DNA of 64,000 nt from Haliotis rubra (taxonomy: Eukaryota): the NCBI RefSeq assembly GCF_003918875.1, contig NW_025766975.1:994684-1058683 (forward strand), written 5' to 3'. The position numbers and the translations under genes were made by a program. The notes beneath the pieces are model-generated. The model saw only the letters and a program-made list of their open reading frames with translations, ran no database searches and was not told the DNA's origin. Below, in pieces: positions 31,706-34,963 of this stretch; position 1 is the first letter of the stretch; the number at the start of each line of letters is the position of its first letter.

Positions 31706-34700
31706 AACCTCACTTGTGAGGTGTTGTAGCACTATATTCATATCCCCAAGTTGGTACGTGAAACTTCCGTTTATTCTCCAAACAGAAACTTAGTAGGTTT
31801 ACTAACCATCTAGTTGTGTTAGTAGCTTGATGATGAAATTCAGGTGTAGTCTGAAACGCTGTGGATTTCGATCCACTTGTATCACGTCGTTCTAGGTAAA
31901 TCGCTGCGATGTCCTTGACGATGTATGTGCACAACCGGGAGTTTGTGTCCTCGATGAACTTTATGTAAAATCGCCTGACTGCTGTGCCCTTGTCTAAACT
32001 TGACAGGGAGGTCTCTAACCTGAAGAAAGCAGCCTAATCATGAAGGTTCAGGTTAACTGGGCTGTAAGGAGGCTTGCTCGTTCATTGATATAAAGTTGTC
32101 ACTTGCAACCTATGTCTTGAACTGTGAACTATGCTCGACCTCTGTGTAGGGCGTTGTTCATCGGGGTCCAATCAGAATAAGGCATTTTGATTCTGTAGAG
32201 TACCCGCGCTGTGATGTCACCGGTGTAGCAGGAAAAGGAACCTTGTATAATATAGTGCCGTCGTTGATATTAGAACAATCATCGGTCTTCATCGTAACTT
32301 CCCGAAGTTACCCGAGTGACCACGTGTTTCGAGGATTAATGGTAAACGCGCGAAAGCTTCGGCGCAAAATACCTTGCTCTGTAATATTAATGCTGGGTAG
32401 GTTATTTTCCTGGCTGTCGTGAAAGTACTTCAGTTTTGAATATAATTCCGACTTCTTTATATATAAAGGTACAATAACTTGTAAGTTGTCAGCTTGTAGA
32501 CTGTATACATGAATGTATCGTCATAATTGTAGAATTAAAGCTGAATTTGTTGTACATATTTCTTCTCAGAAATGTTGACGATTATGAGTTATACTCGCTG
32601 TAACAAGGCTGCTGTTCAATTTCGATATTGAATTGTCTGCAGATATGCGTAATGGTCACGCATGTAGATAATCGTATCGTCGTCCGGGATTGCATATACT
32701 AGCAATTTATACGGAATAGTTGATTTCTGTGAAGATCTATGAAACGTCGTTGACAAATTAATACAGCGACGTTCTGTGTTGTAAATAGCCTGTGCAATTG
32801 TCTTCGCGTAGGCTTATAGACGGCATCTGGCATACAGTTGATAGACAACTTATGCGATGTCTTGAACGGACTGAGGAGTAGCTATATATGACGAGTGGCT
32901 AGTATATGGAGACCTTGGAGGAGACTTCCTCGGTGAACGCCGGAGACTTCACGAAGCTCTCGAAGTATCCCTTCTAGATCTACTGGTGAAGTAGACTTGA
33001 GTTACTTAGCCTTCGCGACCTTCGCGAAGGTATCGAGTCAAAGTCCGATTAGAATATATATATATATATATATATAAGAGCGCTTGCTTCGCGAATGGCC
33101 TCTGTGTTTAACAGGATGTGGGGTCGGCGAAGCGCTACTCCTCCGCGACGTCCCTTGTAGCTGGTGAGGCTCTAGCTCCTTCGCGGAGGCGGCCTGGGAC
33201 TTGCTGGTTCTGCATAAGTAGGGCCGAGTGGATCATCTTATCATTTTCAGAAGTCGTGTTACGAAATCTGGTGATAAGTGTCTCAATGATCGTTCTAGAT
33301 CTATTTAGGCCAACGAACATACGTCTCGTCATGGATTCAACTGAACCAATTTACGATTGTAGTTCTTATTGTTGATATCGATGATCAACTTGTAGTTTTC
33401 ATCGATGTCTTAAGCCTTGAAGAAGGGGTCCATGTTGTGCGTGGAAAACTTCTAGGCGTGAAAGTTCGGCAATTATGGTGTCTGAACTTTTGTGGCTTTA
33501 TGGGATGCTATGTCTAGATTCTGTGCTACCGCAGCAATCGGGTCGATCGGAGGTAGGGTGATAGCATCTGCGTCGTCTTCCTTCATCAGGTATGTCTGCG
33601 TCGTACCGCCACTCTAGGAAGGTGATGTAGACTTGTGTGCAGACTTTGTGTGGTAACCTGTGAGGCGATCGATGTGGTGATGTACGAGGAGATCGGAGAC
33701 TATTGACAGCTTCGCGAAGCTCTTGAGTAGTCCCTGACTCTGTTAAATGACGATCTATATTCGGGTGTCCTTCCCGAGTGCCTTCGCGAATGCCTTCGCG
33801 AACGCCTTCACGAACGTTTCGCGAACGCCTTCGCGAAGCTTCCTCTGCGTTCGGTGCTGGGGAACGGCGATTTGAGCTTCGCGAAGGCTTCCGTGAGGTC
33901 TGGTGGCTGAGTCTGCATCTAAGGATGAAGCCGAGGAATGTGATGATCTATCCCGCCTTCGCGAAGGCCTTCGCGAAGGCTGTACATCTGGGTCCTTCGT
34001 CAAGGTGGTCTGCGACTTCCCGCGAAGGCTGCATCGTCTTGGCTGCTACGTTGACTGGAGGTGCCTCTAGAGTGTTGTCTAAGTTGGAGCCTTCGCGAAG
34101 GCTCGTACTCTGGGCTGGCTGCTTCTCCAGTCTGTAGTGACCTCCATCACGACCATGATTTGCCGTAGTAGCTCGTCTGGGATGGTCTGCGACGAAGTAG
34201 TCGGTGCCATCTCTGCGCTGTTAGTGGTGGGGCCCTCAGGTAAGTCGTCTGACATCAGTGTAGAGACATCAGGCTGCATGACGATCTCTGCTGATGTCAT
34301 TGTAGCTGTCACCGGTCGCTACTTGTCTCATACGTCGAGGATGATGATCGGCTGATCATCGTAGAGGCCAAGTTCAGCGGCTGGAACAATCTCGGTTGAG
34401 AAAGTCCTAGTAGACTTCGCTGAATTCCCTCAGAGGTCGACGCTGCCCTGGGGTGCGAAGTTCGCGTTGAGTGTTGGTAGCGACGGGACCCTCAGGAAGA
34501 TCATCGAATGTTGATCTGCGCTGACATCACTGTTGCCGACATCAGTCATTCTTTGATGTATTATCAGGAATGATGATCGGCTGATCATCATACAGGCCCA
34601 AATCTGCGATGAGAACAATCTCGGCTGAGAAAGTTCTAGTAGACTTCGTTGAATACCCCTCAGTGCGACGAAGGGATGTCTGGGGAAGCAGGACGCTTCT

Positions 34701-34963
34701 TGGAGGCGGCGGACTACGTCCCACGCCTCTCCACCATTCTAGCGGAAAACCAGACGGGAGGGGGGTCGACCAACAGCAGTAGACTGGCGAGGGGTTCAGG
34801 TGTATCAGTCATGCTAGACTCTGCATACGTGACCTATCTGCTGCGCGTCTCAAACGCAAAGTAATTATTTATTAAAGGTAGAATTGGATAAATTAGTATC
34901 GCAACTGCAACGTGAATCACATGAAACATGGCGCAGTACAGCTAGGGCATATTAAATGCGGAT
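31706..34963. mobile_element. nested insertion of unknown type inside TE2
   Basis: TE1 reads ...TTCATAAACC|CGGATCAGCAGC... contiguously; TE2 has 3.25 kb inserted at this point; contains a (TA)n and a cluster of about 12 CCTTCGCGAAGG-type palindromes (32930-34110); no TIR, poly-A or recognisable ORF. Confidence 0.5.
33054..33076. repeat. (TA)n microsatellite
   Basis: atatatatatatatatatatata. Confidence 0.9.

Follow-up and report, generated by a model that had tools for sequence, protein, structure and literature searches.

Homotypic arrays of protein-binding sites are known from several settings: the 5' UTR of gypsy holds 12 Su(Hw) sites, the family of repeats of EBV oriP contains EBNA1 sites, and baculoviruses carry the hr palindromes. 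In the piggyBac family, dimerised CRD domains bind palindromes (PMC13405395). Tandem-repeat-containing MITEs of molluscs (pearl/DTC84-type) have a palindrome in each repeat, which has been proposed as a hotspot for changes in array length (PMC3879986). Here we describe a 64-kb window, the whole stretch of DNA that was analysed, with two related transposon copies, termed TE1 and TE2. TE2 contains an extra segment in which a short palindrome is clustered.

The window corresponds to an animal major-vault-protein (MVP) gene on the minus strand, and TE1 and TE2 are both intronic. The identity of the gene and the intronic location of the two elements are new here, as is a 3-nt periodicity in the right half of the extra segment. 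Protein searches with an MVP exon and an RT ORF of the window returned relatives of at most 57% identity, the named ones including fish and Haliotis. TE1 is bounded by terminal inverted repeats (TIRs) of 194 nt that are 99.0% identical. The two elements, with identities of 96.5%, 89.7% and 95.2% in the three shared blocks of their backbone, are fully collinear except for the copy number of a satellite and the extra 3249-bp segment (Table 1). The candidate target site duplications (TSDs) of TE1 (AAAAAT) and TE2 (ATAATG) are inconsistent, and the flanks are AT-rich. Strings from a TIR and from a SINE did not occur in a literature search, and two 20-23-mers from the TE2 TIR and from an internal direct repeat of the segment had no match in viral contigs. 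The window as a whole is unusually rich in tandem arrays.

Table 1. Features of the two host elements and of the extra segment (positions in the window; o/e, observed/expected).
Feature	Position	Description	Composition or strand	Basis
TE2, host element	29192-35397	in ~8-kb intron of the minus-strand MVP gene		
TE2 TIRs	29192-29383 and 35207-35397	192 nt, 98.4% identical		
95-bp tandem repeat inside TE2	29791-31145	14 copies		
TE1, short copy ("empty site")	20806-22878	junction-homologous position 22434/22435		self-BLAST, junction read-out
95-bp tandem repeat inside TE1	21345-21931	about 3-6 copies		
Extra segment	31710-34958	3249 bp; in TE2, absent from TE1	GC 47%, CpG o/e 1.08	self-BLAST, junction read-out, composition
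Palindrome cluster (G)CCTTCGCGAAGG(C)	32801-34101	14 copies with at most 2 mismatches; 11 with exact TTCGCGAA core (33021-34099)		
9-bp duplication CCTTCGCGA x2 (33010-33027)	33010-33030	ends in exact 12-mer		
(TA)11.5 microsatellite	33054-33076	flanked by palindrome copies on either side		
12-bp tandem array of the palindrome unit	33769-33837	5.8 copies, 84% matches		
Two exact tandem palindrome units (2.2 copies)	33955-33980	together a 26-nt perfect palindrome		
Stretch with 3-nt periodicity	33100-34810	strong periodicity, fewer stops; no intact ORF, no homolog	minus strand	
Internal direct repeat, first copy	34278-34442	~165 bp; 74-85% identical to second, offset 229 bp; holds small palindrome GATGATCGGCTGATCATC		
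Internal direct repeat, second copy	34508-34670			

Reading out the junctions defines the segment precisely. At the empty site TE1 has TGTTCATAAACC/CGGATCAGCAGC (slashes mark junctions); in TE2 the left junction reads CATGTTCATAAACC/TCACTTGTGAGG and the right one GGGCATATTAAATG/CGGATCAGCAGC. At both breakpoints, which are clean and blunt, TE1-collinear sequence resumes to the exact base. A sequence-only reading of this DNA had located them well, its interval of 31706-34963 taking in 4-5 flanking bases per side. It had interpreted the extra DNA as a nested insertion in TE2; the extra DNA with its clean breakpoints is there, but the hallmarks of insertion by a conventional nested transposon are not. 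A chimeric join placed inside TE2 during assembly, for which the highly repetitive nature of the region might speak, is scarcely credible, since a random misjoin would not restore collinearity at both junctions in this way. The segment is a genuine structural variant, though a rather ordinary one.

The composition of the segment differs from that of the TE2 backbone, where GC content is 31-43% and CpG o/e 0.40-0.91. The CpG o/e of the entire window is 0.51, and several other repeat-rich parts of it also reach 0.9-1.1. No second copy of the segment is present within the 64 kb. Nothing similar was found in phage, plasmid, viral or metagenome collections, including a blastn search of the whole segment against phages and plasmids. 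Rfam recovered no RNA family, whether the window was searched at the gathering threshold or the segment at E-values up to 1, and tRNA prediction was likewise negative.

We then compared the segment with the known classes of mobile DNA. End alignments together with domain and homolog searches agree with the sequence-only reading that it has no TIR, LTR, poly-A or recognisable ORF. An inverted alignment of its first and last 150 nt scores 10, compared to a shuffle mean of 10.5, and there is no terminal repeat pair. Neither junction (TAAACC/TCAC and TAAATG/CGGA) shows a TSD or homology by alignment (P=0.22 and P=0.89), and the resemblance between GGCATGTT and GGCATATT, considered as a possible TSD or microhomology, is at chance level. 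The lack of terminal inverted repeats and of a TSD speaks against a cut-and-paste TIR transposon as the nested element. LTR retrotransposons and solo LTRs are recognised by long terminal direct repeats or TG...CA ends and by a TSD of 4-6 bp; the direct terminal alignment of the segment is at chance, and its ends are TCAC...AATG. A non-LTR retrotransposon or processed retrocopy was rejected as well, there being no poly-A or microsatellite tail on either strand, no TSD, no RT and no Pfam match or homolog. Helitrons have the termini 5'-TC...CTRR-3', insert between a host A and T (Helentrons between T and T), form a subterminal hairpin at the 3' end and encode Rep/helicase in autonomous copies. 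The segment does start with TC, but its 3' end GGCATATTAAATG (...TTAAATG) is not CTRR, the nearest CTAG lying 13 nt inside the end. Moreover, the host site in TE1 is AAACC/CGGAT, that is between C and C, only a 4-bp stem is found near the 3' end, and there is no Rep/helicase Pfam match. Read with the standard code, a nuclear copy of mitochondrial DNA should show no stops other than TGA/AGR; every frame of the segment has a mixture of stop types, and no mitochondrial protein or rRNA matched. An alternative genetic code was considered and rejected.

Crypton and DIRS elements are characterised by a tyrosine recombinase ORF, DIRS also by inverted or split direct terminal repeats. The segment shares with them the lack of a TSD; Pfam and protein searches found no tyrosine recombinase domain, and no terminal repeats were found. 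A non-autonomous derivative of such an element would be compatible with the missing recombinase ORF and stays among the candidates. More generally, the segment might be a genuine nested insertion of an unclassified non-autonomous element that makes no TSD, mobilised by rolling-circle or tyrosine-recombinase machinery (Helitron, Crypton, DIRS) or by an unknown system, with the palindromes as cis sites of the mobilising protein. This would account for a precisely bounded piece of DNA, for GC and CpG o/e above the backbone, for the TC start, and for a strongly over-represented palindrome, as expected of protein-binding sites. However, the Helitron features fail at the 3' end, the target and the hairpin, no recombinase or Rep/helicase remnant was found, and no other copy occurs in the window. 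Furthermore, known elements have their cis sites at or close to the termini, whereas the palindromes lie inside the segment. We therefore consider a nested insertion of this kind unlikely.

The absence of these hallmarks speaks against a canonical nested transposon and fits better with a passenger segment that was either lost from the TE1 lineage or captured during repair. The segment would be a passenger of the TE2 form of a non-autonomous transposon with internal tandem repeats, and would not have entered TE2 as a self-mobile element. Most likely, a break and its repair in one lineage of the family made TE1 and TE2 different, a mechanism that we infer from the observed anatomy of the junctions. 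Two routes can be envisaged. An ancestor of TE1 may have lost the segment by internal deletion of the kind that accompanies abortive gap repair in cut-and-paste elements. Alternatively, end-joining with unrelated DNA may have sealed a break within an ancestor of TE2. Abortive-gap-repair deletion and end-joining capture both leave blunt junctions without a TSD. A point against break repair is that the breakpoints show no microhomology, which repair deletions often but not invariably have. With the host element represented by just two copies, gain by insertion into TE2 and loss by deletion from the TE1 lineage look alike; the higher GC content and CpG o/e of the segment fit somewhat better with its later arrival than with an ancestry shared with the backbone. 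An insertion by a type of element that leaves no hallmarks would look the same as an origin by break repair.

The most conspicuous content of the segment is the palindrome. All 11 exact copies of TTCGCGAA in the 64 kb fall into the cluster. Shuffles of the window give an expectation of 0.16 and never reached 11, and a first-order model fitted to the segment gives 0.04-0.06 (P about 1e-21). Allowing up to two mismatches to CCTTCGCGAAGG, 14 copies are found against 0.54 expected, four of them exact 12-mers. The 14-mer GCCTTCGCGAAGGC is matched with up to three mismatches at 11 places, every one inside the segment. The sequence-only reading had counted about 12 copies at 32930-34110, which is a fair figure far beyond chance; the cluster is real and starts earlier once degenerate copies are included. 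Tandem variants and a (TA)n tract, which it had also reported, are both present (Table 1). Its remark that the palindrome core is CpG-rich in an AT-rich genome holds in so far as CpG is high, but this is not specific to the motif, as the segment as a whole, which contains 193 CpGs, has a CpG o/e of ~1.1. With local values of ~1.1-1.2, retention of CpG in the motif needs no special selection.

About half of the palindromes (7-8 copies) lie in 12-bp or 9-bp tandem blocks and the rest are dispersed. For some of the dispersed copies, for example 33178/34090, 33876/34090 and 32946/33709, similarity in direct orientation extends over 15-45 nt of flanking sequence, and in 15 of 73 pairs the flank similarity exceeds the 95th percentile of the null. 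A flank-only search for units without the core, which was too insensitive, recovered just two units. The outer positions vary between sites (GAATG, GAACG, GAAGC and GAAGG) around an invariant TTCGCGAA; the copies were found by searching for the core, which biases any argument that the core is better conserved than its flanks. The cluster is separated by 1091 nt from the left and 857 nt from the right end of the segment, and by ~1300 nt from the nearest end of TE2. Since the palindromes thus lie at least 850 nt from either segment end, they are not subterminal transposase sites. This location weakens the idea of the sequence-only reading that such palindromes could mark transposase binding sites or recombination signals. 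A heat-shock element array consists of at least three contiguous inverted nGAAn units in a 5-bp register. Here each TTCgcGAA is a two-unit site, and within the arrays 4 nt separate it from the following unit, giving a 12-bp period that is out of register. A scan of viral and metagenome contigs for the exact dimer pattern found 19 loci, all in high-GC bacterial contigs that share the motif alone, and literature searches for the palindrome string returned only primers and unrelated bacterial operators.

These features are compatible with a history in which an old internal repeat degenerated, the cluster being the core that is best preserved of it, and this core was later re-amplified locally by replication slippage in 12-bp steps. 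Such a history is supported by the tandem blocks observed and by the weak resemblance between the flanks of some dispersed copies. Because the exact 8-bp core recurs at 11 places with largely unrelated spacers, we think its recognition by a dimeric protein more probable than not. An array of sites for a sequence-specific DNA-binding protein of this kind is plausible on this purely inferential basis, and it could act like an enhancer or insulator, or as a tether for a protein encoded by the element. Alternatively, the cluster may be without function, a neutrally decaying minisatellite whose 12-bp unit is self-complementary by chance and which expanded by slippage and unequal exchange before indels broke it up. 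The share of copies held in the 12-bp and 9-bp blocks, the (TA)n tract and other simple repeats nearby, the abundance of tandem arrays in the window and the undepleted local CpG, which leaves intact CpGs without need of selection, all fit with this. What it does not explain are the five or six dispersed single copies that keep the exact 8-bp core between almost unrelated flanks, and homogenisation within arrays does not account for an inner core that is fixed while the outer positions vary. A neutral origin is a substantial possibility, which we nevertheless rather doubt.

The right half of the segment raises the question of a coding origin. Between 33100 and 34810 the 3-nt periodicity exceeds that of all 191 background windows; its phase is constant over ~470 nt and then shifts, as after frameshifts. 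Stops are fewer on the minus strand, with 20-23 per frame against 29-35. When translated, the two copies of the internal direct repeat give similar peptides (...KSTRTFS.EIV...LGLYDDQPIII...DDLPEGP), several of the differences between them being synonymous, and the length of the palindrome unit, 12 bp, is divisible by 3. The whole segment, or at any rate its right 1.7 kb, could be a captured and decayed host or foreign protein-coding fragment on the minus strand, acquired in the manner of Pack-type transduplication or as filler DNA, with the palindrome as a by-product of a repeated peptide unit (AFAK, LREG or PSRR, depending on the frame). However, stops are frequent in all frames and none is open for more than 149 codons. 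The excess of synonymous over non-synonymous differences between the repeat copies is suggestive but not significant, and the palindromes occur in all three frames (33021, 33711, 33783, 33795 and 34092; 33088, 33958 and 33970; 33818, 33830 and 33878). Homologs were not found in any protein resource searched: ten stop-free segments of at least 79 aa gave no Pfam domain at E-values up to 1, and a 1822-aa concatenation of all 22 stop-free stretches that reach 55 aa gave no homolog in 5.8 billion protein clusters. A HMMER search of the most protein-like piece (34545-34808, minus strand) against 1.84 billion representatives produced a single match, to a bacterial Big_2 repeat protein, which we judged spurious. 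Moreover, the intact RT ORF in the same window has no such periodicity, so that cryptic triplet simplicity, and not coding, may be the source of the signal. Gene capture is quite unlikely as an explanation of the segment. Its right half may descend from a low-complexity coding sequence of the minus strand.

As an account of the whole, we tentatively prefer a passenger segment of the TE2 form that differs from TE1 by break repair and whose palindrome core was amplified by slippage and is recognised by a dimeric protein; we rate this combination at slightly less than an even chance. Its wider importance is small. The locus is a case of non-autonomous tandem-repeat transposons in an animal, probably mollusc-like, genome gaining or losing internal blocks of kilobase size without a signature of transposition, and of a short self-complementary unit that can seed local arrays. 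Should the palindrome be a real protein-binding site, the element would spread a ready-made homotypic site cluster into introns, here of the MVP gene, which would be of modest interest for regulatory DNA borne by transposable elements.

Set beside known systems, the segment resembles Helitrons in lacking TIRs and a TSD and in beginning with TC, but it has neither the CTRR 3' end nor the 3' hairpin, the A/T or T/T target or a Rep/helicase remnant. As in internally deleted cut-and-paste derivatives and filler-DNA capture, the locus has two copies with the same ends, one of which contains a large additional internal block, and its junctions are blunt and lack a TSD; it differs in that the long form, TE2, is without transposase remnant and that no breakpoint microhomology is seen. 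Homotypic binding-site arrays offer an analogy only: within ~1.3 kb, and in the context of a mobile element, a short motif that is mostly palindromic recurs at least 10 times with unrelated sequence between its copies. However, the motif matches none of the sites of the described arrays, the cluster is internal and not terminal, and a binding protein for it is neither known nor encoded nearby. A bolder reading, in which the segment belongs to a class of cargo or mobile DNA not described before, integrating without TSD, and the GCCTTCGCGAAGGC array is an assembly platform for a dimeric recombinase, a tethering protein or a host factor, is very unlikely; such a putative platform would resemble the arrays that maintain episomes or act as insulators. 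Finally, the pearl/DTC84-type MITEs differ from TE1 and TE2, whose TIRs measure ~192 nt and which at 2.1-6.2 kb are not miniature, whose TSD is ambiguous, pearl elements having an AA TSD and a microsatellite at one end of the array, and in which the palindrome cluster lies in the extra 3.25-kb segment and not in the 95-bp array. The likeness is one of architecture: in TE1 and TE2, too, inverted-repeat ends frame a variable ~95-bp tandem array, with 14 copies in TE2 and fewer in TE1, and the palindromic unit of the segment has likewise been expanded locally in copy number.

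The window comes from an animal, not from a prokaryote. The major vault protein (MVP) gene, which houses both transposon copies, is complete on the minus strand: using a human MVP sequence as a probe only, tblastn gave more than 20 collinear exon matches running from ~54292 (N-terminus) to ~10450 and spanning approximately residues 4-850 of the query. An exon ORF at 49622-50116 exceeds the Pfam Vault cutoff with a Vault repeat match, and its database relatives carry PF01505. TE1, the short copy, and TE2, the long copy, are both intronic, TE2 lying in an intron of ~8 kb flanked by exon matches 36875-36780 and 28703-28626.

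TE1 is fully collinear with TE2 in three blocks (96.5%, 89.7% and 95.2% identity), and TE2 differs in only two respects: the copy number of an internal 95-bp tandem repeat (14 copies in TE2, fewer in TE1) and an extra 3249 bp at 31710-34958, hereafter the segment. The junctions agree exactly with those described in the sequence-only reading, which had proposed a nested insertion devoid of TIR, LTR, poly-A and recognisable ORF. These absences all hold: the two ends of the segment are no more alike than chance allows, in inverted or direct orientation, neither a poly-A nor a simple-repeat tail is present, and no stop-free stretch has a Pfam match. The segment is real and anomalous, and the sequence-only interpretation gains partial support. 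Homology between TE1 and TE2 extends ~37 bp past the left TIR (20769-20806 / 29155-29192) and only ~8 bp past the right one (22878-22886 / 35397-35405), which places the long inverted repeats in subterminal positions and makes the element asymmetric. The 6-bp TSD candidates, AAAAAT in TE1 and ATAATG in TE2, would give termini that do not agree.

Positions of the host elements and of the repeats inside the segment and the MVP introns
Feature	Position	Description	Method
TE1	20806-22878	194-nt TIRs, 99.0% identical	self-BLAST
TE2	29192-35397	192-nt TIRs, 98.4% identical	self-BLAST
9-bp duplication	33010-33027		Tandem Repeats Finder
12-bp array	33769-33837	5.8 copies	Tandem Repeats Finder
Perfect two-unit block	33955-33980	26-nt palindrome	Tandem Repeats Finder
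Internal ~165-bp direct repeat	34278-34442, 34508-34670	two copies, offset 229 bp	
77-bp tandem array	12607-13759	x15, intronic, 97% identical	
151-bp tandem array	38606-39152	x3.6, intronic	
31-bp tandem array	47283-49665	x78, intronic	
45-bp tandem array	51044-53265	x49, 90/135-bp higher-order structure, intronic	

Several origins for the segment were considered. A Helitron was rejected: of its hallmarks, the segment shows only the initial TC and the missing TSD, and lacks a 3' CTRR end, a 3' hairpin and an A|T target. About 24 MVP residues between the two flanking exons were not located with the tblastn probe, and no MVP exon was found in the segment by tblastn against the window or the intron alone; a match at 33692-33627 (E=4.7 for the whole window, 0.022 for the intron alone) is weak and resembles the neighbouring exon, not the missing residues. 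A search of 5.8 billion protein clusters with all 22 stop-free stretches of at least 55 aa, concatenated, found no relative, and a bacterial repeat protein, the sole HMMER match to the most protein-like piece in an exhaustive search, was judged spurious. Rfam gave nothing in the segment, and phages and plasmids showed no similarity to it. The absence of homologs and the mixed stop-codon types exclude an origin from mitochondrial DNA or under an alternative genetic code.

Neither TSD nor junction homology was found in the segment flanks. Since all insertion hallmarks are absent and nothing marks the segment as an element of its own, these features argue against a conventional nested transposon. 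Its composition (GC 47%, CpG o/e 1.08), compared with the TE2 backbone (GC 31-43%, CpG o/e 0.40-0.91), mildly favours a later arrival; the argument is weak, as a CpG o/e of 0.9-1.1 is also reached in other repeat-rich stretches of the window. The regional maximum, 1.61 at a GC of 38%, falls in the left, more AT-rich part of the segment (32250-32750), which includes the CGCG-rich GGTAAACGCGCGAAAGCTTCGGCGCAAAATACC. We therefore treat the segment as a passenger block that may have been gained or lost by one family lineage through break repair, gain and loss being compared on two copies, TE1 and TE2. Candidate routes would be abortive gap repair or end-joining capture, each of which yields blunt junctions without a TSD.

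The dense palindromes and (TA)n noted in the sequence-only reading are genuine. All 11 occurrences of TTCGCGAA in the 64 kb fall within 33021-34099, against an expectation of 0.16, and 0/100 shuffles attained 11; under a first-order model fitted to the segment itself the expectation is 0.06 (P about 1e-21). The CCTTCGCGAAGG 12-mer with up to 2 mismatches has 14 sites, all in 32801-34101, and the 14-mer with up to 3 mismatches has 11, all within the segment; (TA)11.5 lies at 33054-33076 (Tandem Repeats Finder). Single-stranded DNA of 33700-34110 folds far better than shuffles (z = -4.4), a trivial consequence of the palindromes. Viral and metagenome contigs were scanned for the palindrome dimer; the only matches were high-GC contigs of bacteria, which share the motif alone.

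Slippage clearly produced about half of the palindrome copies, those arranged in tandem blocks with a 12-bp or 9-bp unit. The remainder are single copies spaced 40-530 nt apart with mostly unrelated flanks, some sharing 15-45 nt of flank in direct orientation (e.g., 33178/34090, 33876/34090 and 32946/33709). Flank similarity exceeds the null 95th percentile in 15/73 pairs, an excess partly due to neighbouring motif copies inside some flanks. The cluster may descend from a longer repeat, old and now decayed, in which the palindromic core is best kept. Sites differ at the outer positions (GAATG, GAACG, GAAGC, GAAGG) and 11 keep the inner TTCGCGAA exactly, a pattern suggesting that the 8-bp core may be constrained, for example through putative recognition by a dimeric DNA-binding protein; this is biased, as sites were ascertained via the core and a flank-only search for repeat units was too weak to lift the bias. 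CpG retention in the palindromes needs no selection, since local CpG is not depleted. Formally, TTCnnGAA makes a two-unit site for heat-shock factor; a heat-shock element was rejected, the 12-bp phasing setting successive units outside the required 5-bp register. Certain palindromes known from animal promoters presumably have a TCGCGA core as well.

The right half of the segment has a 3-nt periodicity (~33100-34810, peak 33900-34700) exceeding 191/191 non-satellite background windows. It could be a relic of low-complexity coding sequence: the purine-rich phase is stable for ~470 nt before shifting, minus-strand frames have fewer stops (20-23 vs 29-35), and the internal ~165-bp repeat copies, translated from the minus strand, give similar peptides with several synonymous differences. 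However, the longest open frame is at most 149 codons, the synonymous excess is not significant, no homolog turned up in any protein resource searched, and an intact RT ORF in the window lacks such periodicity. Cryptic triplet-based simplicity is for these reasons an equally good explanation.

The MVP introns are repeat-rich, with tRNA-derived SINEs, Tc1/mariner remnants, an RT ORF tail and five large tandem arrays, a satellite density unusually high within one gene. The 77-bp array is young, given its 97% identity. A 66-bp array (14121-20418; 6.3 kb, 96 copies, 85% matches) is extremely asymmetric between its strands (GC skew about -0.5), is nearly free of CpG, and adjoins or overlaps exon match 20606-20304. 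A tRNA-derived SINE of ~165 bp occurs at 511-675 and at least 10 other sites (e.g., 2144-2317, 8531-8698, 26256-26424, 41335-41500), a second repeat of ~250 bp at 3945-4203, 37010-37258, 58875-59086 and others; neither was called by ARAGORN or Rfam. Their common 3' tail ...GGAATATTGCT..GCGGCGTAAAAC..ACTCACTCACTC suggests two SINE families with the same LINE-derived tail. The SINE architecture hints at a mollusc-like host. A young ~320-bp repeat (35482-35801, 5282-5600, 24331-24551; 96-97% identical) has one copy directly right of TE2 and one, 24331-24551, inverted and split. Tc1/mariner transposase remnants and part of a non-LTR reverse-transcriptase ORF lie at 56878-57523 (+), 61250-61654 (-) and 2860-3762 (-), the 56878-57523 remnant exceeding the Pfam HTH_Tnp_Tc3_2 cutoff. 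The RT ORF is a 300-aa open C-terminal part, and its best named relatives, fish and Haliotis proteins, are only 43-57% identical.

We read the segment as an unclassified, probably non-coding passenger; the element that carries it is a structural variant of a kind already known, and the feature is not categorically new. We consider it very improbable that the segment is cargo or mobile DNA lacking a TSD, with the palindrome array as a putative platform for protein assembly. The cluster lies 1091 nt from the left segment end, 857 nt from the right and ~1300 nt from the nearest TE2 terminus, unlike the subterminal transposase-binding repeats of known cut-and-paste families; it resembles, by analogy only, homotypic binding-site arrays of some mobile elements and episomes. 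The TE1/TE2 difference is like that between the usual long and internally deleted forms in cut-and-paste families. In architecture, both recall bivalve tandem-repeat-containing MITE-like elements, in which each core repeat includes a palindrome proposed to favour changes in array length (PMC3879986), although the two copies here are far larger and have an ambiguous TSD.
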